A stretch of DNA of 64,000 nt from assembly GCF_003790525.1 (NCBI RefSeq), contig NZ_CP033635.1; one strand, 5' to 3'. The notes below the pieces were generated by a model, which worked only from the letters and a program-made list of their open reading frames with translations, was not told the DNA's origin and did no database searches. Shown here in pieces: positions 15,300 to 59,341 of this stretch. Made by a program: the position numbers and the translations under genes. How positions within the stretch are numbered: the first letter of the stretch is position 1; every line of letters begins with the position of its first letter. The stretch is from Escherichia coli. GTDB taxonomy: Bacteria > Pseudomonadota > Gammaproteobacteria > Enterobacterales > Enterobacteriaceae.

Positions 15300-15662
15300 T
15301 AAACTAATTTCACCTCCGTTTTCGCATTATATTTTCTAATGCTATGATTTTTTGATTTAGTGTTTTTTGACATTTTTTTAGTTCTTAATATTGCCTTATT
15401 CAAATTAACTTTCTAATGGCATCATCTTTATATAGAAACTAGAGTGTTTTTTGGTTTTTTATTCTGTCGCGATTTTGGCGTTTTTTAACCATAAGCTAAT
15501 GTGATGATCAATTTTACCTTATGGTTAACAGTCTGTTTCGGTGGTAAGTTCAGGCAAAAGAGAACGATTGCGTTGGGGACCGGGAGTGGCTCCGATGCTG
15601 GGTTTCGTGGTGATAATTTCACCATGAAAAGTTGTCAGCCCCGCTTATTCAATGAGGACAAG
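15300..15662 (+). promoter_or_regulatory. gcvTHP promoter and upstream control region
   Basis: About 360 bp AT-rich non-coding DNA upstream of gcvT; in E. coli this region carries the gcv promoter and GcvA/Lrp/PurR/CRP sites (established knowledge; individual sites not resolved here). Confidence 0.4.
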
Positions 15663-30134: not shown

Positions 30135-31652
30135 ATGTCTGAACAAAACGCACAGGGCGCTGACGCGGTAGTCGATCTTAACAATGAACTGAAAACGCGT
30201 CGTGAGAAGCTGGCGAACCTGCGCGAGCAGGGGATTGCCTTCCCGAACGATTTCCGTCGCGATCATACCTCTGACCAATTGCACGCAGAATTCGACGGCA
30301 AAGAGAACGAAGAACTGGAAGCGCTGAACATCGAAGTCGCCGTTGCTGGCCGCATGATGACCCGTCGTATTATGGGTAAAGCGTCTTTCGTTACCCTGCA
30401 GGACGTTGGCGGTCGCATTCAGCTGTACGTTGCCCGTGACGATCTGCCGGAAGGCGTTTATAACGATCAATTCAAAAAATGGGACCTTGGTGACATCCTC
30501 GGCGCGAAAGGTAAACTGTTCAAAACCAAAACCGGCGAACTGTCTATCCACTGTACCGAGCTGCGTCTGCTGACCAAAGCACTGCGTCCGCTGCCGGATA
30601 AATTCCACGGCTTGCAGGATCAGGAAGCGCGCTATCGTCAGCGTTATCTGGATCTCATCTCTAACGATGAATCCCGCAACACCTTTAAAGTGCGCTCGCA
30701 GATCCTCTCTGGTATTCGCCAGTTCATGGTGAACCGCGGCTTTATGGAAGTTGAAACGCCGATGATGCAGGTGATCCCTGGCGGTGCCGCTGCGCGTCCG
30801 TTTATCACTCACCATAACGCGCTGGATCTCGACATGTACCTGCGTATCGCGCCGGAACTGTACCTCAAGCGTCTGGTGGTCGGTGGCTTCGAGCGTGTAT
30901 TCGAAATCAACCGTAACTTCCGTAACGAAGGTATTTCCGTACGTCATAACCCAGAGTTCACCATGATGGAACTCTATATGGCTTACGCAGATTACAAAGA
31001 TCTGATCGAGCTGACCGAATCGCTGTTCCGTACTCTGGCACAGGATATTCTCGGTAAGACGGAAGTGACCTACGGCGACGTAACGCTGGACTTCGGTAAA
31101 CCGTTCGAAAAACTGACCATGCGTGAAGCGATCAAGAAATATCGCCCGGAAACCGACATGGCGGATCTGGACAACTTCGACTCTGCGAAAGCGATTGCTG
31201 AATCTATCGGCATCCACGTTGAGAAGAGCTGGGGTCTGGGCCGTATCGTTACCGAGATCTTCGAAGAAGTGGCAGAAGCACATCTGATTCAGCCGACCTT
31301 CATTACTGAATATCCGGCAGAAGTTTCTCCGCTGGCGCGTCGTAACGACGTTAACCCGGAAATCACAGACCGCTTTGAGTTCTTTATCGGTGGTCGTGAA
31401 ATCGGTAACGGCTTTAGCGAACTGAATGACGCGGAAGATCAGGCGCAGCGCTTCCTGGATCAGGTTGCCGCGAAAGATGCAGGTGACGACGAAGCGATGT
31501 TCTACGATGAAGATTACGTCACCGCACTGGAACATGGCTTACCGCCGACAGCAGGTCTGGGAATTGGTATCGACCGTATGGTAATGCTGTTCACCAACAG
31601 CCATACCATCCGCGACGTTATTCTGTTCCCGGCGATGCGTCCGGTAAAATAA
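30135..31652 (+). CDS. lysS: Lysine--tRNA ligase
   Basis: 505-aa [36 protein letters not shown]; 9 nt downstream of prfB. Confidence 0.93.
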
Positions 31653-31671
31653 GCATTACGTTATGCTCACA

Positions 31672-31697
31672 ACCCCGGCAAATGTCGGGGTTTTTTA
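31672..31697. terminator. Terminator hairpin shared by convergent lysS and idi
   Basis: ccccggca-aatgt-cgggg hairpin followed by tttttt on the plus strand; overlaps the idi 3' end. Confidence 0.55.
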
Positions 31698-32243
31698 ATT
31701 GTGCTGCGCGAAAGCAGACAACAATTTTCTTGCTTCACTATTGGCTGCCTGCATCACCATCCACGGACTGAACGCCCACGGCGTGGCATCAATACCGTGT
31801 AATACATCTGCTAAATCACACCATTGATAATCCATCACTTCATCATCGTTGATCTGTAACGCACTGGTGGTGCGTGCGGCAAATACCGGACACACTTCAT
31901 TTTCCACAATGCCATTCGGATCGGTGGCGCGATAGTAGAAGTCAGGATAGATAGATTCAGGAGGCGTAATTTCCACGCCAAGCTCATAACGGCAACGGCG
32001 GATCACCGCGTCTTCGTTGCTTTCTCCCAGTTGTGGGTGCCCACAAACCGAGTTAGTCCACACGCCAGGCCACGCTTTTTTGCTAAGGGCGCGGCGGGTA
32101 ACTAATAATTGCCCTTTGGCATTAAACAGCCAACTGGAAAACGCGAGATGTAAGAGGGTGTCTGCCGTGTGTGCGGCATACTTTTCCAGCGTACCCGTGG
32201 GAACTCCCTGTGCATTCAATAAAATGACGTGTTCCGTTTGCAT
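31695..32243 (-). CDS. idi: Isopentenyl-diphosphate delta-isomerase (Nudix fold)
   Basis: 182-aa [29 protein letters not shown]. Confidence 0.9.
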
Positions 32244-32364
32244 AATTTCTCACATGTAATTCTAATCACTCATCATTATAGATAATTGAAGAGTGAAATG
32301 ATTAACCAAGTGAGCGTTTATCGACAACCGCCCGTTTTGAGCGGATGTCGACAGGTAAAACCAT

Positions 32365-32490
32365 TTAAAAAAGCAGCATCATATATTTGAAGCGACTTTC
32401 AATGGCCATTGCAACACAGTCAGAAATGACAGGAATAGAGAGAGTAAAAAGCAACAACAGACTGAATATAGCGCGCATTAAAAGATTCAT
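32365..32490 (-). CDS. Small hydrophobic protein, 41 aa (possibly the K-12 small protein YqfG; identity unverified)
   Basis: Minus-strand ATG at 32490 preceded by SD GGAGA, 2 nt after the uacT stop; encodes MNLLMRAIFSLLLLFTLSIPVISDCVAMAIESRFKYMMLLF. Not in the ORF track because it is under 60 aa. Confidence 0.4.
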   Translation of the reverse strand: MNLLMRAIFSLLLLFTLSIPVISDCVAMAIESRFKYMMLLF

Positions 32491-32491
32491 A

Positions 32492-33940
32492 TTATTCTCC
32501 ATGCTCATTTTTCTTCAGCTTGCGCATCAGAAGCCACATACGTACTGTCCTGACTTTTAAATCTTTATCAGAGACGGATTCCTTCACCAGGTCAGCATGA
32601 TGCTGGTAGCCATTAAAGAAGACGTTCAGCACAACGGCGCTAAGGGTTGCGAGCATAATGCCGCTATGCAGCAACGGTTGCAGTACGGCCGGTAACTTAG
32701 AAAAGAAATCGTGAGAGAGCGTCGGAGTCATGCCAACGCCGAGACTGATCGCCACAATATAGAGGTTGTAACGGTTGGTGGTGTAGTTACAGCGCGACAG
32801 AATTCGAATCCCTGTCGCCAGTACCATGCCGAACATCACCAGCCCTGCGCCGCCAAGCACAAATTGCGGAATCGAGGCGACCAGCACCGCCATTTTGGGC
32901 ACCATGCCAAACATGATTAATATAATTCCCGAAGAAATACACACCCAGCGGCTATGAACGCGCGTCACGCTAACCAGGCCAACGTTTTGTGAAAATGACG
33001 TGTGGGGGAAGCTGTTAAACGTTCCGCCTATCATTGTCCCTACGCCATCGACACGCAGCCCGCGAATAATATCGTGTGAAGAGAGTTTACGACCGACTAT
33101 TTCACCCAGTGCCAGGAACATCCCCATCGACTCGATAAACACGATGATTAACACGGCAGTCATGGTCAGAATGGAAACGGGATCGAAAATCGGCATACCA
33201 AATGACATCGGCGTGACAATCGCAAACCACGAGGCATCATGTAGCCCGGATAAATTGACTTCATTCATCATCCACGAAAGTAAAAAGCCAAATACAATCC
33301 CCAGTAATACGGCGACGTTGGACATAAATCCTTTCGCATAGCGAGTAATGAGCAAGATAAAAATTAAGACAGCAAAGGAGATACCTAAATAAACGGGATT
33401 ACCATATTGCGGATTCCCTTTACCTCCTGCGGCCCAGTCAATACCCACCTGAATGATGCTAAGTCCGATAGAAGTAATCACCACACCGGTAACCAGTGGC
33501 GGGAATAAAGGCATCAAGCGACCGATAAGTGGCGCTAATAATGTGGTGATAAAACCCGCGGCGATAGTGGCACCAAATATCCCCAGCAGGCCGATATCCG
33601 GGTTCATCCCAATGGCTATCATTGGTGTTACAGCGGCGAAGGTCACCGACATAATCACCGGCAGGCGGATCCCCATAAAGCGGCCGATACCGATACATTG
33701 CAATAATGTGACGATCCCGCAGCAAAAGAGATCCGAGCTAATGAGCATCGCAATAGCTTCTTTTGAGAGGCCCAGTCGGTCGCCAATCATAAGAGGAACA
33801 GCGACTGCACCTGCGTACATGACAAGGACGTGTTGCAGACCGAGTATGATCAGCTTTCCTGGTGATAATATGCGGTCAACCTCATCAGTTGGGCGGTCTT
33901 GCCCTGAAGATGAGGGAAGTTGGGAATCTATGGCGCTCAT
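32492..33940 (-). CDS. uacT: Uric acid transporter (NCS2/NAT family permease)
   Basis: ORF track 525 aa; trimmed to MSAIDSQLPSSSGQDRPTDEV (482 aa) with SD aaggaga. Confidence 0.85.
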   Translation of the reverse strand: MSAIDSQLPSSSGQDRPTDEVDRILSPGKLIILGLQHVLVMYAGAVAVPLMIGDRLGLSKEAIAMLISSDLFCCGIVTLLQCIGIGRFMGIRLPVIMSVTFAAVTPMIAIGMNPDIGLLGIFGATIAAGFITTLLAPLIGRLMPLFPPLVTGVVITSIGLSIIQVGIDWAAGGKGNPQYGNPVYLGISFAVLIFILLITRYAKGFMSNVAVLLGIVFGFLLSWMMNEVNLSGLHDASWFAIVTPMSFGMPIFDPVSILTMTAVLIIVFIESMGMFLALGEIVGRKLSSHDIIRGLRVDGVGTMIGGTFNSFPHTSFSQNVGLVSVTRVHSRWVCISSGIILIMFGMVPKMAVLVASIPQFVLGGAGLVMFGMVLATGIRILSRCNYTTNRYNLYIVAISLGVGMTPTLSHDFFSKLPAVLQPLLHSGIMLATLSAVVLNVFFNGYQHHADLVKESVSDKDLKVRTVRMWLLMRKLKKNEHGE

Positions 33941-34375
33941 CAGTGTTTCTCCTTTCGCTCGCCAGAGTAAAAAGCAACCGTTTACGTTCATGAAACTGTC
34001 TAAACACATGCTCGTGGAGTGCCAGTTTTTGCGAGGAAGGGGAGTTAGAGACAGGAATTGCGGAGGCAATCACATAATCGTGGTTAAACCACGAAAATGA
34101 GAAGAGAACCTGACAATGGAATTATCTGTAATTTTCTCATATTGATATTTCATTAATCATTCTGGCATGTCGCACTCTCGCATTTAATCGTTTTTATCTG
34201 GATAGCATTCTTTTGATCGGCAATGTTGAAATAATGAAAGCTGCATAGATTGAGGGGCAATAATTTGAACTCAGTCGCAAAATTATAATTAAATCGGCCA
34301 TGCTACCTAATATATGCCCATTTATTGCATCGCGAAATTTGAGAAGACATAACTCATTAAATGAAAGGGATGCAA

Positions 34376-36295
34376 ATGAATAAGTTTATCGCTGCTGAAG
34401 CTGCGGAATGTATAGGCTGTCATGCTTGTGAAATTGCCTGTGCGATGGCACATAATCAAGAAAACTGGCCGCTGAGTCACAGTGACTTTCGACCGCGTAT
34501 CCACGTTGTAGGGAAAGGCCAAGCTGCGAATCCGGTGGCCTGCCATCACTGCAACAATGCCCCTTGCGTTACGGCTTGTCCGGTTAATGCTCTGACTTTC
34601 CAGCCCGATAGCGTACAACTGGACGAGCAAAAATGTATTGGTTGTAAAAGATGCGCAATCGCTTGCCCCTTTGGCGTCGTTGAGATGGTCGATACGATTG
34701 CGCAGAAATGCGACCTTTGTAACCAGCGCAGTTCCGGCACGCAAGCCTGTATTGACGTCTGCCCAACACAGGCGTTACGGCTGATGGACGATAAAGGGTT
34801 GCAGCAGATAAAGGTGGCCCGCCAGCGCAAAACGGCAGCAGGAAAAGCGTCATCAGACGCTCAGCCATCTCGCAGTGCGGCGTTGCTCCCCGTTAACTCG
34901 CGTAAAGGCGCAGATAAAATTTCAGCGAGTGAACGGAAAACCCACTTTGGCGAAATCTATTACGGGCTGGATCCACAACAAGCGACTTATGAGAGTGACC
35001 GCTGTGTTTATTGCGCCGAAAAAGCTAACTGCAACTGGTATTGCCCGCTGCATAACGCTATTCCGGATTACATCCGTCTGGTACAGGAAGGAAAGATTAT
35101 TGAAGCGGCAGAACTTTGCCACCAGACCAGTTCCTTACCCGAAATCTGCGGCAGGGTATGTCCACAGGACCGTCTTTGTGAAGGCGCATGTACTTTGAAA
35201 GATCACTCTGGCGCAGTCTCTATCGGGAATCTGGAACGCTACATCACCGATACTGCGTTGGCGATGGGCTGGCGTCCCAATGTCAGCAAAGTTGTTCCCC
35301 GTAGCGAAAAAGTGGCGGTGATTGGCGCTGGACCTGCAGGATTAGGGTGTGCTGATATTCTGGCGCGCGCGGGAGTTCAGGTTGATGTCTTTGATCGCCA
35401 TCCAGAAATTGGCGGTATGCTGACTTTTGGCATTCCTCCTTTCAAACTCGATAAAACGGTATTAAGCCAGCGGCGAGAGATATTCACCGCAATGGGAATC
35501 GACTTTCATCTTAACTGTGAAATTGGCCGCGATATTACCTTTAGCGATTTAACTTCTGAATATGATGCAGTTTTCATCGGCGTGGGGACTTACGGGATGA
35601 TGCGAGCAGATCTGCCGCATGAAGATGCGCCCGGTGTCATTCAGGCTCTACCGTTCCTGACTGCCCATACCCGCCAGCTCATGGGGTTGCCGGAGTCTGA
35701 AGAGTATCCGCTGACGGATGTGGAAGGTAAGCGAGTCGTGGTATTGGGCGGTGGCGATACGACCATGGATTGTTTGCGGACTTCCATCCGCCTCAATGCC
35801 GCCAGCGTGACCTGCGCGTATCGTCGTGATGAAGTCAGTATGCCGGGCTCGCGCAAAGAGGTGGTCAATGCGCGCGAGGAAGGTGTCGAGTTTCAATTCA
35901 ATGTTCAGCCGCAATATATCGCTTGTGACGAAGATGGGCGTTTAACTGCGGTGGGCCTGATTCGTACCGCCATGGGTGAGCCGGGGCCGGATGGTCGCCG
36001 TCGTCCTCGTCCGGTAGCGGGTTCAGAGTTTGAATTGCCCGCCGATGTTCTCATTATGGCCTTTGGTTTCCAGGCGCATGCCATGCCGTGGTTGCAGGGC
36101 AGCGGAATTAAACTCGATAAATGGGGCCTGATTCAAACCGGTGACGTCGGGTATTTACCTACCCAGACGCATCTGAAAAAAGTCTTTGCTGGTGGTGATG
36201 CTGTTCATGGCGCGGATCTGGTTGTCACTGCAATGGTCGCAGGAAGGCAGGCGGCGCGCGATATGTTAACTCTGTTTGATACGAAGGCATCGTGA
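34376..36295 (+). CDS. ygfT: Fe-S/FAD oxidoreductase YgfT (N-terminal 4Fe-4S ferredoxin domains fused to a glutamate-synthase-small-subunit-like pyridine nucleotide-disulfide oxidoreductase)
   Basis: ORF track 644 aa from 34361; start set at the third ATG ([22 protein letters not shown]), which has SD aaggga. Cys-rich CxxCxxCxxxCP motifs and GAGPAGL dinucleotide fold. Confidence 0.8.
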
Positions 36296-36783
36296 TGAAA
36301 TCGTTAATTATCGTTAATCCGGCTGACTGTATTGGCTGCCGTACTTGTGAAGTAGCCTGTGTGGTCGCTCACCCTTCAGAACAGGAGTTGAATGCCGATG
36401 TCTTTTTACCCCGGCTGAAGGTACAGCGACTGGACAGCATCAGTGCGCCGGTGATGTGCCATCAGTGTGAAAACGCCCCTTGTGTTAGCGCTTGCCCCGT
36501 GGGGGCGCTGACGATGGGCGAGCAGGTGGTGCAGACCAATTCTGCCCGTTGTATTGGCTGTCAGAGTTGCGTCAGTGCGTGCCCGTTTGGAATGATCACC
36601 ATTCAGTCGTTGCCGGGGGATACCCGGCAACAAATCGTGAAATGCGATCTCTGTGAACAGCGGGAAGAGGGGCCAGCCTGCGTTGAATCTTGCCCAACAC
36701 AGGCGCTGCAGTTGCTTACTGAAAGAGAACTCAGGCGAGTCCGCCAGCAGCGTATTGTTGCCAGCGGTGAGAATCCTCTGTGA
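36295..36783 (+). CDS. ygfS: 4Fe-4S ferredoxin-type protein YgfS
   Basis: 162 aa from ATG at 36295 (track starts at GTG 36292); several CxxCxxCxxxCP motifs. Start overlaps the ygfT stop. Confidence 0.8.
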
Positions 36784-36818
36784 AAGAAATCTCCGCGCTG
36801 AAAGGCGCAGAGAATCTA

Positions 36819-38186
36819 TTAGATTGCCCAACCACCCGCGTAAAATGCGACCAGTGCGGCAGTAATGATCACCGTACCAATATTCAGCTTTTGCCATTCG
36901 CGGGCAAAGACGCGGCCTACGACCAGTGTCACAAAGCCCAGCATAATACCGGTAACGATATTACAAGTCAGAACGATGAACACGGCACACACCAGGCCAG
37001 CCATAGCGTCAATAAAATCATTGAAATCCAGCTTCGAGACGTTACTTAACATCAGCAAACCTACGTACATCAGAGCGGGTGCAGTGGCGTAACCAGGGAT
37101 CAAAAATGACAGCGGTGATAAGAACAGAATCAGGAGGAATAACGCCCCCACTACGGTTGCGGTCAACCCTGTTTTACCCCCGGCGGCGGTTCCTGCCGCT
37201 GATTCGATATAAACCGCTGCGGGCGCTGCGCCCACCAGGCCGGAGAATATTGAACTTACTGAGTCACTGGTCAGGGCTTTGCCGCCGTTGATGATCTGGT
37301 TGTCTTTATCCAACAAATTCGCCTGACCGGCGACGGCACGGATGGTACCAGTGGCGTCGAACACTGCGGTCATCACCAATGCCAGTACACTCGGAAGTAC
37401 AGTTGGCTGGAGTGCGCCCATAATATCGAGGCTGAAAATCAGAGACTTACCATCTTCGCCAGTCAGGCTTGGCATCGCCACCAGACCGTGGTATTTCACC
37501 GCTGGATCAAAGATTAAGCCGATGATCGAGATGGCAATAATCACCAACAAGATCCCGCCGGGTACGCGGCACTTTTCCAGACCGAAGATGACCGCCAGCC
37601 CCAGTAAGCTCATCATCACCGGGAAGGAGGTAAACGCACCGAGCGCCACTGGCAAGCCTTCAATCGGGTTTTTGATAACCATTCCCACACCGTTAGCAGC
37701 AATCAGCAGCAGAAACAGGCCGATACCGATACCTGTACCGTGAGCTATCCCCATCGGTAAATTACGTAAGATCCAAGTACGCACACCGGTTACGGAAATG
37801 GCGGTGAAGATGACGCCCATCAGAAAGACCGCGCCCAGTGCGACAGGAACGCTAATTTGTTGCCCGAGTACCAGACTGAATGCGGTAAACGCCGTCAGGG
37901 AAATCGCGCAACCAATCGCCATTGGCAAATTGGCCCATAACCCCATCAGCAACGAGCCGAAGCCCGCGACCAGACAGGTGGCAACAAACACAGCTGCGGG
38001 AGGAAAACCTGCTTTGCCCAGCATTCCCGGAACAACGATAACGGAATAAACCATGGCCAGAAAGGTCGTTAAGCCAGCCAGTACTTCCTGACGAACGGTA
38101 CTGCCACGAGCGGTAATTTTAAAATAATTATCCAGCGCGCCCTGTGGCTTTGGTGCGTCCGGTGTTTGTAGGATGTCTCCAGACAT
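36819..38186 (-). CDS. ghxQ: Guanine/hypoxanthine permease (NCS2/AzgA-like family)
   Basis: 455-aa polytopic membrane [37 protein letters not shown]. Confidence 0.85.
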
Positions 38187-41120: not shown

Positions 41121-43991
41121 TTATATTTTTTCCAGCGCGGTGAGTATTTTCTCCGGTGTGAAATGCCATTCGCGTAACCAGATGCCGCATGCATCGTGAA
41201 TTGCGATAGCAATCGCCGGAGCTGCGCCATTTACACCGATTTCCGAGATCGATTTCGCCCCGAACGGGCCGACTTTATCGTCGCTCGGCACCAGCACAGC
41301 GCGGAAATCACGCGGAATGTCACCAATTTTCGGTGCGCCGTAACTGCGTAAATCACGCGTTAACGGGTGACCTTCGGCGTCATAAATGATCTCTTCGCTC
41401 ATACTGTGGCCGATAGCTCGCAGAGTGGCACCGTAGATTTGTCCCAACGCTAACTCTGGATTGACCGGTGTACCGCAATCCAGCAAGGCGTAGAATTTAT
41501 CCAGGCGGATTTCACCCGTACGCGTGTTGACGGCAACTTCAGCAAAGTTTGCGCCATACGGGAAGGCGAAATCAGGCGTGATATAACTGCCAGTTCCCAC
41601 CAGTGAACCAAAGCCGGTGCCGGTTTCGCCTTTATGGGCTATCTCTCCGAAACTAACTTCGCCTTTCTTGCCGCGAACGACGCCCGGCGTTGCTAGTTGA
41701 ACATCTGCCACTGGCTCACCCAACATTTGCGCGCCGTGGAACAGGATTTTCTCCCGCAGATTTTCCGCTGCCAAACGCGCAGCGTTACCCGAGAAGCAAG
41801 TACCGGACGAGGCATATGCGCCTTTATCAAACAGTGCATGATCGGTATCACCAGAGATAACATGCACGTCCTGCGGTGGGCAGTGCAGCACTTCTGCTGC
41901 CAGTTTCGTCACCACAGTATCCAAACCAGTACCAATATCCGCACCGCCAGAATGAACGATAAAGGTACCGTCTGATTCCAGTTTGATCATGCAGTTAGCC
42001 TGATCGATATCCGGGATACCCGATTTCTGCATGATAATGGCGACGCCACGACCGATGTGCCAGTCACCGTTTTGTGGTTTTGGTGAAGACCATTGGATCA
42101 TCTCGCGACCCTGACGCAGGATCTCTTCCAGTGCGCAGCTGGCGGCGGAAGGAACGGAGGTCGGCGCTTTACCTTCACCGATTGCACCGAGAATTTTCAG
42201 CTCTTGCCCTTCGTGTACCCGGTTACGTTCGATAATTTCCAGTTGGTCGATCTGTAACTGTTCAGCCAGTTCCGCTAATGCCATGGTGATAGCGAAGTTA
42301 CCTTTCGGTGCGCCATAACCCTGATAAGCACCATTTGGGCAAATGTTGCTGTAGTAGGTGGTGACCTGGAAATCGACGTTATCGCACGGATATAACGGCA
42401 GCGACAGCGCCGGTCCGTTACACGGTACGGTGAGTGAGTGGTTGCCGTAAGGGCCAGTGTTGGCGCGGAAATCCATCTTCACTGCCGTCAGGCGACCATC
42501 TTTTTTCGCTCCCAGTTTGACGGTGACTTTCGCGACGTGACGAGAGGTGTTAGCAATAAACTCTTCTTCACGGGTGTAGCGGAACAGTACCGGACGCCCG
42601 GTCACGCAGGTTGCCCAGGCGCACACTTCTTCCAGCAGGATGTCCTGTTTGGAACCAAAACCGCCGCCAACTCGCTCTTTAATGACATGAACTTTATGTT
42701 GTTTCATGCCCACGAGGCGCGCGACCTGGCGGCGTAAGTGCCATGGTACCTGGGTGGAGGCGTGGATAACCAGACGATCGCCGTCCATACGGGTAAAGCA
42801 GATATGTGTTTCAGTCGGGCACTGCTGCGCCTGCGTTGAGTTATAGGTTCGCTCAATGATCACATCGGCATCGGCAAAGCCTTTGTCCATATCGCCAATA
42901 TGACCATGGATACTGGCAGCGATATTTTTGCGTGGGCGAGAACCGATCGGGAAGTTGATGATCATATGCTCGCCGCGCTGGGCTGCATGGCTGTTATCAT
43001 CTTCCAGAGTATCTGGCGCACCAGCAACATACACCACCGGTTCATCGTGCACCACAGGCGCATCTTCCGCCATTGCCTCGTCAATCGACATTACTGGCTT
43101 AAGCACCTCATATTCAACGTCGATGAGCTTCAATGCTTCGAGCGCAATGTCTTCACTTTCAGCGACGACCGCAGCAACACGATCGCCGACGTGACGCATT
43201 TTCTTGCCGAACATACGGCGGTCAAGCGGTGACGGTTCCGGTGCGCTCTGACCACCCGGGGTATAGTAGATATCTGGGCAATTCAGGTGAGTAATAACGT
43301 GAACGACGCCCGGTAAGGCTTCAGCTTTGCTGACATCCAGATGAGTAATCAGTGCGTGAGCGTGTGGGCTACGTAACATTTTAATGACGCAGGCGTCAGC
43401 CGTTACGCGGTCTTCAACATAGCAGGGTTTCGCCTGCACCATTTTCGCGGCATCAGTTTTAGGATAATGCTTGCCAATGACTTCAAGGTCGTCACGGAAA
43501 GTCGGAGCGATATCAATGGTGGCCTGCGGATTATTTTTACGTGCAACCGCCAGTTCAATGACCTGATAGTATTGCTGCCAGCCAGCATCGCGGCTAAACA
43601 GACCTGAGAGCGCGTCGTCGATCTCTTCGCGGGTAGGTGCGGCGATGCGATCGAGAAGATCGGTGATAATCAGAGCCGCAGCTGGATCGTTATAACCAGA
43701 CTGCACCACGCCAACATCAACCATGGCCTGTTGAACCAGACTTAACTCGTTCCATTTGCCCAGAGATTCTGCGGTACGAATATCTGCCTTCTCTAACTGT
43801 GCGGCAATAAGCAAGGACGCGTTAACGATATTACCGTTAAAGATAATTGCGTCAGAACCGGCAAACCCAAAACCATCATCACTGTTGCGTACAGAGTGCA
43901 TTCCCATGTTAAACAACAGCTTTTGCACGTTTTCGCCTGGATTAACGGTTAGCTCCTGAGGCGCGCCATTTAAAGTAAAGTGGATGATCAT
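41121..43991 (-). CDS. xdhD: Molybdopterin-dependent hydroxylase XdhD (fused 2Fe-2S and Mo-cofactor-binding subunits, xanthine dehydrogenase family)
   Basis: 956-aa ORF MIIHFTLNGAPQELTVNPGENVQKLLF. Confidence 0.88.
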   Translation of the reverse strand: MIIHFTLNGAPQELTVNPGENVQKLLFNMGMHSVRNSDDGFGFAGSDAIIFNGNIVNASLLIAAQLEKADIRTAESLGKWNELSLVQQAMVDVGVVQSGYNDPAAALIITDLLDRIAAPTREEIDDALSGLFSRDAGWQQYYQVIELAVARKNNPQATIDIAPTFRDDLEVIGKHYPKTDAAKMVQAKPCYVEDRVTADACVIKMLRSPHAHALITHLDVSKAEALPGVVHVITHLNCPDIYYTPGGQSAPEPSPLDRRMFGKKMRHVGDRVAAVVAESEDIALEALKLIDVEYEVLKPVMSIDEAMAEDAPVVHDEPVVYVAGAPDTLEDDNSHAAQRGEHMIINFPIGSRPRKNIAASIHGHIGDMDKGFADADVIIERTYNSTQAQQCPTETHICFTRMDGDRLVIHASTQVPWHLRRQVARLVGMKQHKVHVIKERVGGGFGSKQDILLEEVCAWATCVTGRPVLFRYTREEEFIANTSRHVAKVTVKLGAKKDGRLTAVKMDFRANTGPYGNHSLTVPCNGPALSLPLYPCDNVDFQVTTYYSNICPNGAYQGYGAPKGNFAITMALAELAEQLQIDQLEIIERNRVHEGQELKILGAIGEGKAPTSVPSAASCALEEILRQGREMIQWSSPKPQNGDWHIGRGVAIIMQKSGIPDIDQANCMIKLESDGTFIVHSGGADIGTGLDTVVTKLAAEVLHCPPQDVHVISGDTDHALFDKGAYASSGTCFSGNAARLAAENLREKILFHGAQMLGEPVADVQLATPGVVRGKKGEVSFGEIAHKGETGTGFGSLVGTGSYITPDFAFPYGANFAEVAVNTRTGEIRLDKFYALLDCGTPVNPELALGQIYGATLRAIGHSMSEEIIYDAEGHPLTRDLRSYGAPKIGDIPRDFRAVLVPSDDKVGPFGAKSISEIGVNGAAPAIAIAIHDACGIWLREWHFTPEKILTALEKI

Positions 43992-49247: not shown

Positions 49248-49568
49248 AACCCTCTCCTTAGCTTATACAGATATCATTGAGTGACCGGTGTTGAGAAATC
49301 CGGTGGTTTAGGGGGATAGAGCAACAATCGCACCACTCTTGCCAGGTTTGGCGGGAAATATAAAAAAATGTGAGGCGGCTCGAAACTTAATGGCTTTTTG
49401 TGAATGAACTCACAGGTGCCAAATGAGAATTAAAATCACTCCTGAAAATTATTATTGCCAGCACATTTATCACTTTTTCTCTTTTCTCAAAATCAGTGAT
49501 TCCTTATCATTATGATAAAGAGTGCAGGAGGGATTAAATATTTGAACGCAATCGTTTAACTACGTTTT

Positions 49569-50250: not shown

Positions 50251-51021
50251 GTGAAAAGTATAATTGACCCATCGGCATTATTCATTGATTTAGGCGCGCA
50301 GAAACGTCCCACTGTGATTTCTGTTGTTGGGGCTGGGGGGAAAACCAGCTTGCTTTTTTGGCTGGCAGAACTGCTCCAGGCTAGCGGCAGGCGTGTGTTA
50401 ATCACTACGACGACACATATGTTTATGCCAACGTCTCACTGGCCCGTGGTTTTCTGTCGTGATCCCGCCATGCTTCCTCATGCGTCTTTTATATCCCCCA
50501 TTTTATTTTGTTTTCACAGCTGGAAAGCGAACCAGGGAAAAGTGCAGGGATTTACGCCAGAAGCGATTGATGCACTGGTGCAACGACCAGAGTGTGACGT
50601 AATTCTCATTGAGGCAGATGGCTCGCGTGGAATGCCGTTAAAAGCGCCTGATGAGCACGAACCTTGCATACCTAAAAGCAGTTGCTGCGTGATTGCTGTG
50701 ATGGGAGGACATATTTTGGGTGCGAAAGTGAGCACAGAAAATGTCCATCGCTGGTCGCAGTTTGCTGATATTACTGGGTTAACACCTGATGCACCCTTGC
50801 AACTGAGCGATCTCGTTGCGCTGGTTCGCCACCCTCAGGGGGCGTTTAAAAACGTACCGCAAGGTTGTCGGCGAGTCTGGTTCATTAACCGTTTTTCTCA
50901 ATGTGAGAATGCGATTGCGCAAAGCGAGCTCCTTCAACCGCTGCAACAACACAACGTAGAGGCAATCTGGCTGGGCGATATACAAGAACATCCTGCAATC
51001 GCGCGCAGATTTGTGAATTAG
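50251..51021 (+). CDS. yqeC: Selenium-dependent molybdenum hydroxylase system accessory protein YqeC
   Basis: 256-aa ORF with GTG start and P-loop-like VVGAGGKTS. Confidence 0.8.
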   Translation: MKSIIDPSALFIDLGAQKRPTVISVVGAGGKTSLLFWLAELLQASGRRVLITTTTHMFMPTSHWPVVFCRDPAMLPHASFISPILFCFHSWKANQGKVQGFTPEAIDALVQRPECDVILIEADGSRGMPLKAPDEHEPCIPKSSCCVIAVMGGHILGAKVSTENVHRWSQFADITGLTPDAPLQLSDLVALVRHPQGAFKNVPQGCRRVWFINRFSQCENAIAQSELLQPLQQHNVEAIWLGDIQEHPAIARRFVN

Positions 51022-56421: not shown

Positions 56422-57618
56422 TTAAGGTGCTACAGCGTGTTTGCCTTCCCAGACAACTTCGCGGTAGTGCTTCACGTCTGTGTCGCCTTCAGTGCTGATA
56501 ACCAGCACTACGGCATCTTTGTTCAGCGCCAGTTTTTCCATCAGGCTTTGACGTTGCGGGTGATAATGAACCGCTGCGAGAACGCCCAAACCGACAGCGC
56601 CGGATTCACCGGAGATGATGCGCGGGTCGTTGCCGTACGGATTACCCAGCACGCGCATACCTAATGCGGCAACGCTGTCCTGGCAGGAGATGAATTGGGT
56701 GGCGCAGTTACGTAGGATTTCCCAGCCCAGCGGGTTAGGTTCGCCACAGGCCAGGCCCGCCATGATGGTGGCCATATCACCGCCAACGTTGACGATGTCG
56801 CCTTTGACGCCGGAGCGATAAATACAGTCAGCTTTGTCAGGTTCAACAATAATGCTGTGCAGATTTTGCGGGCTGTAGACGTCGACCAGATAACCCAGCA
56901 CACCACCGGCCATTGCACCGACACCAGCTTGCAGCAGAACGTGTGTCGGGGTTACGCCCATTTCACGCATTTGCTCGACGGCTTCATCTGCCAGTGTTGC
57001 GTAGCCTTGCATGATCCAGGTTGGGATTTTGGTGTAACCTTCCCATGCTGTATCCTGTACCACTTCCCAGCCGTGCTGCTGCGCGTGTTGCATGGTCAGG
57101 CGAACGGTATCGTCATAGTTCATATCCGTGACGATGCACTCGGCACCGAGGTTCAGAATGGCGTCAACGCGTTCCTGAGCAGAACCTTTCGGCATGTAAA
57201 TCACCGCATTCTGTCCGAGTTGCTGTGCTGCCCATGCCACACCGCGCCCGTGGTTGCCGTCGGTGGTGGTCGCGAAGGTCATTTTTTCGCCGATGGCATT
57301 TTTCAGATGCTCAAATGACAGCGTTTCGATATCAAGATGATATTTTTCACACAATAATTGAGCGATGGCGTACGCACCGCCGAGCATTTTGAAGGCGTTC
57401 AGACCGAATCGTTTTGATTCGTCTTTGACGAGAATTTTCTTCACACCAAAAAGGTTTGCGAGATCGTCCAGCGCACAAAGCGGTGTTGGGCGATAACCAG
57501 CAATTTTCTGGTGGAACTGGCGCGCCAGTTTGGCCTGGCTTTGCGAAAAGAGCGGTGATGTTTCGCCGTTGAAAAATTTGTTATCGGCGATATCAATCTT
57601 CAATGAGAAAACGGACAT
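56422..57618 (-). CDS. ygeX: Diaminopropionate ammonia-lyase (PLP-dependent)
   Basis: 398-aa ORF MSVFSLKIDIADNKFFNGETSPLF. Confidence 0.88.
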   Translation of the reverse strand: MSVFSLKIDIADNKFFNGETSPLFSQSQAKLARQFHQKIAGYRPTPLCALDDLANLFGVKKILVKDESKRFGLNAFKMLGGAYAIAQLLCEKYHLDIETLSFEHLKNAIGEKMTFATTTDGNHGRGVAWAAQQLGQNAVIYMPKGSAQERVDAILNLGAECIVTDMNYDDTVRLTMQHAQQHGWEVVQDTAWEGYTKIPTWIMQGYATLADEAVEQMREMGVTPTHVLLQAGVGAMAGGVLGYLVDVYSPQNLHSIIVEPDKADCIYRSGVKGDIVNVGGDMATIMAGLACGEPNPLGWEILRNCATQFISCQDSVAALGMRVLGNPYGNDPRIISGESGAVGLGVLAAVHYHPQRQSLMEKLALNKDAVVLVISTEGDTDVKHYREVVWEGKHAVAP

Positions 57619-58972: not shown

Positions 58973-59341
58973 GAATTATCCACGCGGCTGCGAAAGGCTA
59001 ATTTGACGGATAATGTGTGGGGTTGATCACAAATTGATGCCAGCTTCCGGTTGTTTGTAAAATACGAAAACGTTTGGCTTTTTTTATCGCGTTATTTATT
59101 TGCTGCTAAGTATCAGAAATAAGATAAAGGGACAGGCGATCTCTCTTCAGTTTGATAAACTCACCGCCGTAATTCTCATATTGATATAGAAATGTGATAT
59201 CTCTTCCATAATTTCATTAGAAAGTGATAAAAATCTTATGTTTTTATCAAAGCCAATTTCGCCTGAGTTAATATCATCATGATCTATGAACCATCAACGT
59301 CTTCAATGATCGACTTTTAAGTAAGTCTGGAAGGTAAAGCT

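Follow-up and report, generated by a model that had tools for sequence, protein, structure and literature searches.

The region described here lies in a 64,000-nucleotide stretch of Escherichia coli DNA, referred to below as the window. It is an already described unit, uacT <> ygfT (uacF)-ygfS, in the urate/purine catabolic island of E. coli. Both the locus and its part in formate-dependent uric acid breakdown are already known. The AT-rich spacer of 435 bp that had been read from the sequence between uacT and ygfT-ygfS is present, with a GC content of 38% vs roughly 0.50-0.58 in the adjoining genes, and the two units diverge from it (Table 1). The ygfS start overlaps the ygfT stop codon (ATGA), and ghxQ, which is found from position 36819, is convergent with ygfS. 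Between these convergent genes the terminator scan returned a hairpin with a 9-bp stem that includes six GC pairs and has a T-run on the minus strand. Over positions 33700-36900, several complete E. coli genomes show 100% identity, and matches occur in 5330 of 5426 E. coli genomes, most of them 95-99% identical. K-12 is presumably among these; its ygfT (uacF, b2887), ygfS (b2886) and uacT (ygfU, b2888) share the genes, their order and the 435-bp spacer with the present strain, and the differences are strain-level substitutions only.

Table 1. Genes and observed, published or predicted features of the uacT/ygfT-ygfS region (window coordinates).
Feature	Position	Strand	Basis
uacT (ygfU), urate:H+ symporter, NCS2 family	32492-33940	-	RefSeq annotation; Pfam Xan_ur_permease 8.6e-124
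uacT/ygfT intergenic spacer, 435 bp	33941-34375		RefSeq annotation transferred to window coordinates
PurR-box candidate ACGTAAACGGTTGCTT	33972-33987	-	32-47 nt upstream of uacT ATG; PWM
Candidate sigma-54 -24/-12 element facing uacT, CTGGCACTCCACGAGCA	34009-34025	-	PWM; conservation
Weak CRP-like site TGCGGAGGCAATCACA, low confidence	34059-34074		Consensus scan, conservation
Longest conserved upstream block	34115-34168		50/54 columns invariant, alignment A1
Dyad TCTCATATTGATA (reverse complement TATCAATATGAGA), candidate YgeV enhancer (UAS)	34135-34147		12-mer sharing; PWM; conservation
Sigma-54 -24/-12 element of ygfT-ygfS, TATGCCCATTTATTGCA	34313-34329	+	Published ChIP-seq peak OS32; PWM
ygfT (uacF), Fe-S flavoprotein	34376-36295	+	NCBIfam NF009451; Pfam domains; PDB relatives
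Intragenic PurR motif GGGCAAGCGATTGCGC	34653-34668	-	Assigned by Cho et al. 2011 to ygfT-ygfS ChIP-chip region
ygfS, four-cluster HycB/HydN-type ferredoxin	36295-36783	+	Cys motifs, Pfam Fer4 families, HycB relative
GC-rich hairpin between convergent ygfS/ghxQ, likely terminator	36790-36813		Terminator scan

YgfT is covered along its entire length (residues 1-639 of 639) by the NCBIfam equivalog NF009451, with a score of 1495.4 bits against a cut-off of 1154. The protein begins with a HydN/HycB-like 4Fe-4S dicluster N-terminus (Pfam, residues 11-137), followed by Fer4_20 (188-298) and Pyr_redox_2 (312-622), and its PDB relatives are GltD (6s6s_G, 3.8e-107), NfnI (5jca_L, 9e-85) and HycB (7z0s_B, 3.6e-30). 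The original prediction, which described YgfT as ferredoxin domains fused to a pyridine-nucleotide oxidoreductase, was accurate. The glutamate synthase small chain and NfnI both align over residues 176-631, and both Fer4_20 and Pyr_redox_2 are present, as in the Fe-S flavoproteins of the GltD/NfnB/PreT type. Unlike these proteins, YgfT is fused to a HycB-like N-terminus. YgfS, a protein of 162 aa, was likewise described correctly as a poly-ferredoxin, with 16 Cys residues in four 4Fe-4S-type motifs, and is related to HycB (7z0s_B, 6.6e-32). The HydN model matches it at 2.5e-40 and 137.9 bits, under the equivalog cut-off of 260, and by this score YgfS is a HydN paralogue, not HydN. The HycB/HydN/YsaA ferredoxins, which are partners of formate dehydrogenase H, form a group of four-cluster proteins to which both YgfS and residues 1-157 of YgfT belong.

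AegA (b2468), a paralogue of YgfT, has the same domain architecture, and the AegA model gives YgfT 950.7 bits. Both proteins are implicated in formate-dependent urate degradation. Unlike ygfT, aegA has no ygfS-like partner, and its induction by urate is only modest, whereas that of ygfT is strong. The 205-bp aegA-narQ spacer contains neither the dyad nor the sigma-54 element described below, and aegA is not a member of the YgeV iModulon, which includes both ygfT and uacT.

According to later papers citing Iwadate & Kato 2019, aegA, ygfT and ygeV have a part in the consumption of urate that depends on formate, and YgfT (UacF) is needed for formate-dependent urate degradation; by the same citations, the ygfT deletion experiment that the original prediction suggested was already published in 2019. 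Others have reported that uric acid strongly induces ygfT, that the uacF-ygfS operon is uric acid-inducible, and that ygfT expression is reduced in a ygeV mutant. YgeV has the architecture PAS + sigma-54 AAA+ + HTH_8. The degradation of urate is an anaerobic process. When carried out by gut bacteria it affects host uric acid, and E. coli strains are being engineered to bring uric acid down, while the switching-on of the native urate genes is described in the literature as poorly understood.

Published sigma-54 ChIP-seq includes a weak peak, OS32, whose K-12 sequence TATGCCCGTTTATTGCA lies 36 nt upstream of ygfT (PSSM 4.5), with a signal near threshold (FAT 3). In the present strain an A replaces a G in the spacer of this -24/-12 element. 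The -12 GC is kept and the -24 GG is replaced by TG, with one G only, and the PWM score of 7.0-7.5 falls under all 37 training sites (minimum 8.7). Sixteen of its 17 columns are invariant in the alignment of Escherichia and Citrobacter. A consensus scan of 34150-34310, between the candidate enhancer and the promoter, found no IHF site above chance; the only 1-mismatch IHF match in the spacer overlaps the PurR box. An IHF site is not obligatory for this class of enhancer-dependent sigma-54 promoters. CTGGCAT at 34162 was rejected as a promoter, as it has no GC at the -12 spacing and scores 3.7.

On the other side of the spacer, the element facing uacT has GG and GC at the canonical spacing, with an A in place of the nearly invariant T at -14, before the -12 GC. 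Its PWM score (7.3-7.4) is about the same as that of the ChIP-verified ygfT site, and 15 of 17 columns are invariant in the Escherichia and Citrobacter alignment. No sigma-54 ChIP-seq peak at this element is reported in the main-text tables of the published study.

Between the two elements lies a dyad with the consensus TATCA-N3-TGA(G/T)A, which also occurs upstream of ygeW, ygfK and xdhA. The exact 12-mer CTCATATTGATA has three copies in 70.6 kb, in the uacT-ygfT spacer, in the ygeV-ygeW spacer and upstream of xdhA, and is thus common to three of the four sigma-54 control regions and found nowhere else in that sequence. The ygfK copy of the dyad is the perfect palindrome TTATCATAATGATAA. In Klebsiella aerogenes, K. 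oxytoca and Kosakonia the dyad is conserved ahead of both ygeW and ygfK. A cross-validation PWM built from the Klebsiella and Kosakonia sites only, when run on E. coli, ranked the ygfK, ygeW and uacT-ygfT spacers at the top, with the xdhA spacer sharing fourth place. All 13 dyad columns are invariant in the Escherichia and Citrobacter alignment, although background invariance in the spacer is already 0.71 in the footprinting alignment (A1), a shallow set of six sequences from Escherichia and only one other genus, Citrobacter. The depth of footprinting is limited because a genome search with YgfT found few close orthologues beyond Escherichia and Citrobacter. The dyad is 180 bp upstream of the ygfT sigma-54 element and 124 bp upstream of the one facing uacT, and dyad-to-promoter distances overall (112-215 bp) are typical for enhancer-binding proteins. 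Buttiauxella shares this layout, with a canonical sigma-54 site (18.3 bits), the dyad and then a ygfT-type sigma-54 site. From these comparisons the dyad is probably an enhancer site for YgeV.

PurR appears to overlay this control. A PWM derived from a training set of 26 published PurR sites (median 20.3 bits) gives the box upstream of uacT 19.1 bits, the top PurR score on both strands of the window, and in 15 of the 16 columns of this box Escherichia clades and Citrobacter do not vary. Published ChIP-chip lists a PurR region for ygfT-ygfS with a log ratio of 2.08 in adenine. This region (3,028,215-3,029,251 in K-12 coordinates) takes in 297 bp of the spacer as well as the 5' part of ygfT, stopping 91 bp short of the uacT box, which is absent from the published list. 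The intragenic motif assigned to the region lies near its centre and scores 13.8 bits with the present PWM, weaker than the uacT box. Only the full 16-bp PWM is informative here, as the PUR-box core alone, with two mismatches allowed, gives 4 matches vs 5.5 expected, which is not above chance. We infer that the uacT box is a PurR operator. Like the operators of xanP, yieG/purP and yjcD, it is a 16-bp PUR box that nearly fits the consensus and lies a short way from where a gene for an NCS2-family transporter begins. Unlike those operators it would lie downstream of the transcription start, as a roadblock, rather than between -35 and -10, if the predicted sigma-54 start is right.

Taken as a whole, the spacer resembles a sigma-54 control region that works in both directions, with PurR superimposed on it, and does not resemble an FNR-type anaerobic promoter. 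We place the probability of this reading of the uacT/ygfT-ygfS unit, comprising a bidirectional sigma-54 spacer, a YgeV dyad, a PurR overlay and a YgfT-YgfS path for formate electrons, at about 0.7. YgeV, somehow induced by urate, would bind the dyad and activate both the ygfT-ygfS and the uacT promoters, while PurR binds the 5' part of ygfT, as published, and is also predicted to act at the near-consensus operator in the uacT leader. On this model transcription would begin near 34340 (+) for ygfT and near 33998 (-) for uacT. The original prediction considered the control region long for a simple promoter; its length could be explained by an apparently bidirectional, enhancer-dependent sigma-54 control region. 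The purine-responsive sites that it expected were found, in the listed ChIP-chip region and in the window's best PurR box, but the main regulators to which the literature and the motif analysis point, sigma-54 and YgeV, were missed. A precedent for divergent sigma-54 pairs served by one enhancer-binding protein is established for FhlA at hycA/hypA, with back-to-back -24/-12 elements and activator sites in or near the shared spacer. In the published list, 128 bp separate the divergent sigma-54 sites of hycA and hypA, whereas the uacT and ygfT elements are 304 bp apart and both non-canonical, with one shared dyad detected and activator contact predicted.

Several other accounts of the spacer have to be weighed against this one. 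The anaerobic sites that had been expected could mean that uacT and ygfT-ygfS are served by ordinary sigma-70 promoters under FNR/ArcA control, the spacer being long only from several such sites. We regard this as very unlikely. The paralogue aegA is reported to be anaerobically regulated (Cavicchioli 1996), urate degradation is itself anaerobic, and an ArcA-like match (11 of 15 positions, equalled by 5% of windows) adjoins the dyad at 34143-34157. However, the best match in the spacer to the FNR site (TTGAT-N4-ATCAA) has 3 mismatches in 10 and is equalled by 88% of 435-bp windows, so the FNR expectation fails, and sigma-54 binding in vivo upstream of ygfT and the dependence of ygfT on YgeV are both published. 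The standard scan found no sigma-70-like promoter of at least 9/12 in the spacer, and the relaxed scan found one weak, non-conserved candidate only. It is also quite unlikely that the dyad, though real, is bound by a different protein, whether an ArcA-, Fur- or Nac-like global factor or some regulator of purine catabolism. At ygfK the dyad has some likeness to a portion of a Fur box (ATAATGATAA), and matches to the dyad PWM are also found inside dpaL and yqeC; yet the Fur consensus fits the spacer poorly (8 of 19 mismatches), the dyad precedes each of the four sigma-54 promoters in the YgeV iModulon at a distance like that of an enhancer and is missing from aegA, and in three other genera it co-occurs with ygeV beside ygeW. 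A more serious competitor, at a little below even odds, concerns uacT alone. The gene may not depend on sigma-54, its promoter being a weak sigma-70 one that overlaps the PurR box, in which case the CTGGCA...GAGCA block would be a transcription-factor site or a chance conservation. Such a promoter would accord with the published position of most PurR operators, between -35 and -10, with the lack of the conserved T in the -12 region, and with the lack of a reported ChIP-seq peak on the uacT side, where constitutive sigma-54 occupancy would be expected. Against it, the 130 bp next to the uacT start contain no sigma-70 match of at least 8/12, and uacT varies together with the YgeV iModulon. In Buttiauxella, where the arrangement is shared, the gene read leftward has a canonical sigma-54 promoter, and GG and GC hold their exact spacing across genera in the block.

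A further choice arises for the proteins. The original prediction cast YgfT and YgfS as electron-transfer partners of the neighbouring hydroxylases. The link to purines and urate is published, but NADH reportedly serves XdhD-YgfM in vitro, and the same use of NADH has been proposed for YgfK, so no direct wire from YgfT/YgfS to a hydroxylase is needed in vitro. We infer that YgfT, in which a HycB-like chain of 4Fe-4S clusters is joined to a GltD/NfnB-like FAD/NAD(P) module, acts with YgfS to take formate electrons via FDH-H either into the pool of pyridine nucleotides or straight to the enzymes that reduce urate. Such a path would account for the dependence on formate that has been published for urate degradation. 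We know of no partner catalytic subunit for YgfT. In a two-hybrid assay AegA showed no interaction with FDH-H (FdhF). The narrower idea that YgfT-YgfS is a dedicated Fe-S wire that supplies XdhD or XdhA, a molybdenum hydroxylase, directly with electrons, and does not produce NAD(P)H, is unlikely. In its favour, ygfT-ygfS is located inside the hydroxylase island and, in Buttiauxella, a pair of ygfT/ygfS-like genes diverges from a gene for a MoCoBD+FAD hydroxylase of 1074 aa without any 2Fe-2S domain. The complete GltD/NfnB-type FAD/NAD(P) module of YgfT argues against such a wire, as does the published finding that XdhD, which purifies together with YgfM, can reduce urate with NADH as the only donor.

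The sigma-54, YgeV and PurR reading could be pushed further. In its strongest form, the dyad, bound by YgeV, would be the operator of the whole E. coli urate regulon and would fire both divergent, non-canonical sigma-54 promoters simultaneously, including the unannotated uacT one; PurR would act as a roadblock in the uacT leader; and YgfT-YgfS together with FDH-H would constitute a formate:NAD(P)+ oxidoreductase feeding the reductive urate pathway. This combination is tentative, and we consider it somewhat more likely to fail than to hold. A defined YgeV operator, a mapped uacT promoter and the PurR overlay would help in the design of urate-responsive or deregulated strains, and such a result would be an incremental refinement of a known system and not a new kind of element.

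The spacer contains a few lesser features. Consensus scans for FNR, NarL, NtrC, Nac, Lrp, AllR and Fur gave matches in the spacer no better than those in most 435-bp windows. An Rfam scan of 31500-37500 returned a single match, at chance level (E = 0.44) and outside the spacer, so no riboswitch or sRNA is indicated. A perfect 15-bp palindrome, CGTGGTTAAACCACG (34079-34093), was discarded as an operator, with just 0.47 of its columns invariant, and the mini-ORF ATGAAAGCTGCATAG at about 34233 is not conserved, its TAG becoming CAG in other Escherichia clades. The weak CRP-like site has two mismatches to TGTGA-N6-TCACA, a match equalled by 19% of 435-bp windows, and is found in a conserved block in which 0.88 of the columns are invariant.

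The enhancer-binding protein YgeV most likely activates sigma-54 RNA polymerase at ygfT (uacF) by binding a dyad, TATCA-N3-TGA(G/T)A, in the spacer between that gene and the urate transporter gene uacT. Others have shown that sigma-54 binds at ygfT and that ygfT depends on YgeV; that YgeV binds the dyad is what we infer. In sigma-54 ChIP-seq, a weak intergenic peak (OS32) has the motif TATGCCCGTTTATTGCA 36 nt from ygfT, with further peaks at xdhA, ygeW and ygfK, and expression of ygfT is lowered in a ygeV mutant. The YgeV iModulon, a co-varying gene set, includes ygfT, uacT, xdhABC, ygeWXY-hyuA and ygfK-ssnA-ygfM-xdhD. YgeV itself has PAS, sigma-54 AAA+ and HTH_8 domains, the architecture of an enhancer-binding protein.

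The locus is already known, its function and main regulatory inputs having been published. The original prediction describes it accurately, in agreement with the annotation, the spacer length (identical in K-12) and the GC content (0.38 in the spacer, roughly 0.50-0.58 in the genes on either side), and misses the dominant sigma-54/YgeV logic. Several complete genomes match positions 33700-36900 at 100% identity, and 5330 of 5426 E. coli assemblies contain a match. Newly proposed here are a candidate YgeV operator, uacT sigma-54 promoter and uacT PurR operator, which are testable and incremental.

Features of the uacT-ygfT locus and dyad matches in the island (gene coordinates: RefSeq annotation transferred onto the window; dyad scores: matrix of non-E. 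coli sites; distances: dyad to -24/-12 centre)
Feature	Position	Strand	Score	Invariant fraction	Remark
idi	31695-32243	-			
yqfG					listed between idi and uacT
uacT	32492-33940	-			
uacT-ygfT spacer	33941-34375			0.71	435 bp
PurR-box candidate ACGTAAACGGTTGCTT	33972-33987		19.1 bits	0.94	32-47 nt upstream of uacT ATG
candidate uacT-facing sigma-54 site CTGGCACTCCACGAGCA	34025->34009	-	7.3-7.4	0.88	124 bp from dyad
CRP-like site	34059-34074			0.88	
E. coli palindrome CGTGGTTAAACCACG	34079-34093			0.47	
dyad, uacT-ygfT spacer	34135-34147		16.6 bits	1.00	
ygfT sigma-54 site	34313-34329	+	7.0-7.5	0.94	180 bp from dyad
ygfT	34376-36295	+			
ygfS	36295-36783	+			ATGA stop/start overlap with ygfT
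ghxQ	from 36819				convergent
dyad, ygfK-mocA spacer			18.0 bits		183 bp to ygfK promoter
dyad, ygeW-ygeV spacer			16.6 bits		215 bp to ygeW promoter
dyads, xdhA-actS spacer			15.1 and 13.3 bits		112 and 133 bp to xdhA promoter
dyad match within dpaL	57330-57342		15.1 bits		
dyad match within yqeC	50896-50908		14.8 bits		

The dyad was found by comparing the island's four sigma-54 control regions. In 70.6 kb there are exactly three copies of the 12-mer CTCATATTGATA, one at 34136-34147 between uacT and ygfT, one between ygeV and ygeW, and one upstream of xdhA; the ygfK region contains the perfect palindrome TTATCATAATGATAA, and TATCA-N3-TGA(G/T)A is the form common to all four. In the ygeW loci of Klebsiella aerogenes, K. 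oxytoca and Kosakonia cowanii (3/3), ygeV is divergent from ygeW, and the dyad lies upstream of both ygeW and ygfK. When the 70.6 kb of E. coli DNA was searched with a matrix (PWM) built only from these six non-E. coli sites, the three best matches all fell in the four spacers, which make up 2.3% of the sequence (estimated chance ~1e-5). All of the dyad-promoter distances are within the normal range for enhancer-binding proteins. The copy within yqeC lies ~170 bp upstream of yqeB and has counterparts in the yqeC genes at both Klebsiella loci; Kosakonia has one copy where the dpaL/ygeX orthologue stands. The dpaL and yqeC copies may be extra enhancer sites, or may be kept merely via coding-sequence conservation.

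Conservation was assessed in an alignment of six sequences: two from E. coli strains, three from other lineages of Escherichia and one from Citrobacter sp. MGH106. Of the conserved blocks upstream, the longest, 34115-34168 (50/54 columns invariant), contains the dyad. The 15-bp palindrome at 34079-34093 is perfect in E. coli, is degraded in the other Escherichia clades and Citrobacter, and may be due to chance. As a negative control, the 205-bp spacer between narQ and the ygfT paralogue aegA (K-12, L018 4527-4731) lacks both the dyad and any sigma-54 site, in agreement with aegA lying outside the iModulon and being regulated differently.

YgeV may well activate uacT too, at even odds or slightly below. 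The candidate element, scored with a sigma-54 matrix trained on 37 published sites, stops 69 nt short of the uacT ATG and has canonically spaced GG and GC, with an A replacing a nearly invariant T. An independent case of the bidirectional layout proposed for uacT and ygfT is found in Buttiauxella sp. A111 (L013 419-6414), where a pair of genes resembling ygfT and ygfS diverges from the gene for a 1074-aa fused molybdenum hydroxylase (MoCoBD and FAD domains, no 2Fe-2S domain). In the spacer there, one sigma-54 site is canonical and points towards the hydroxylase (CTGGCACAGCCTTTGCT, 18.3 bits), another is of the ygfT type and points towards ygfT (TGTGCACCTTTTTTGCA), and the dyad TATCAAACTGATA lies between them. 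Promoter scans of the E. coli spacer found no convincing sigma-70 promoter. The second-ranked sigma-54 match of the entire window, ATGGCGCAAACTTTGCT (41541-41557, minus strand, 16.1 bits), sits within the 3' end of xdhD and is directed at xanQ, ~585 bp upstream of its start; neither xdhD nor xanQ is mentioned in the text of the ChIP-seq paper.

Anaerobic or purine-responsive sites had been expected in the spacer. FNR-type control was not borne out, as the consensus scan found no FNR site; scans for NarL, NtrC, Nac, Lrp, AllR and Fur gave nothing beyond chance, CRP only one weak, conserved CRP-like site, and Rfam no family. The purine part of the expectation holds for PurR. PurR control of the ygfT-ygfS locus is published, since a ChIP-chip region, 'ygfT-ygfS', covers it (log ratio 2.08 in adenine); a second region is ygfK-ssnA. 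With a matrix of 26 published PurR sites from which ygfK and ygfT were excluded, ACGTAAACGGTTGCTT is the top match of the entire window, compared with 18.2 for the ygfK site and 13.8 for the motif that Cho et al. selected inside ygfT. The published gcvT operator AAGAGAACGATTGCGT (15558-15573), recovered at 18.4 bits, served as positive control. The uacT box lies 91 bp outside the edge of the ChIP-chip region (K-12 coordinates), which is centred on the intragenic motif, and the uacT-leader operator is a prediction of the present sequence analysis. If the sigma-54 start of uacT is right, the box would cover about +11 to +26 and be placed as a roadblock. PurR with its purine corepressor most likely dampens the uacT/ygfT-ygfS unit. 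Within the ygeV-ygeW spacer, the dyad and the sigma-54 promoter of ygeW flank another strong match, ACGAAAACGTTTGGCT (59064-59079, 17.3 bits), which is absent from the published PurR ChIP-chip table. About 30 bp separate the ygfK dyad from the published ygfK PurR motif (49546-49561, minus strand), which lies ~8 bp beyond the stop codon of mocA; at this distance PurR might hinder the activator from binding.

The domain descriptions in the original prediction, ferredoxin domains fused to a pyridine-nucleotide oxidoreductase in YgfT and a poly-ferredoxin in YgfS, were confirmed. YgfT scores 1495 bits (cut-off 1154) against the NCBIfam equivalog 'formate-dependent uric acid utilization protein YgfT' and contains 4Fe-4S dicluster (residues 11-137), Fer4_20 (188-298) and Pyr_redox_2 (312-622) Pfam domains. 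The nearest solved structures are glutamate synthase small chain (3.8e-107) and NfnI for residues 176-631, and for the N-terminus HycB (3.6e-30), the ferredoxin-like formate hydrogenlyase subunit that accompanies FDH-H there as small subunit. YgfS (162 aa) has 16 cysteines arranged as four 4Fe-4S motifs, is also HycB-like (6.6e-32) and scores under the cut-off of the HydN equivalog.

According to later papers that cite Iwadate & Kato 2019, anaerobic urate consumption by E. coli requires formate and involves aegA, ygfT and ygeV, and AegA and YgfT were proposed as electron carriers from formate dehydrogenase to NADP+ or urate. Given this published urate/formate work on ygfT, the deletion experiment once suggested has already been done. 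Uric acid induces ygfT highly and aegA only modestly, and the operon, named uacF-ygfS, is described as urate-induced. From homology and the published formate dependence, YgfT-YgfS most plausibly couple formate oxidation by FDH-H to NAD(P)+, by way of the 4Fe-4S cluster chain and FAD. The output would be NADH, used by XdhD-YgfM and, as proposed, by YgfK. In the reductive urate pathway reconstituted in vitro (XdhD-YgfM, YgfK, SsnA, HyuA, YgeW, YgeY and YgeX), NADH is the reductant at the XdhD step and YgfT is given no place. Direct donation of electrons from YgfT-YgfS to a hydroxylase is possible, and is hinted at by the gene neighbourhood in Buttiauxella.
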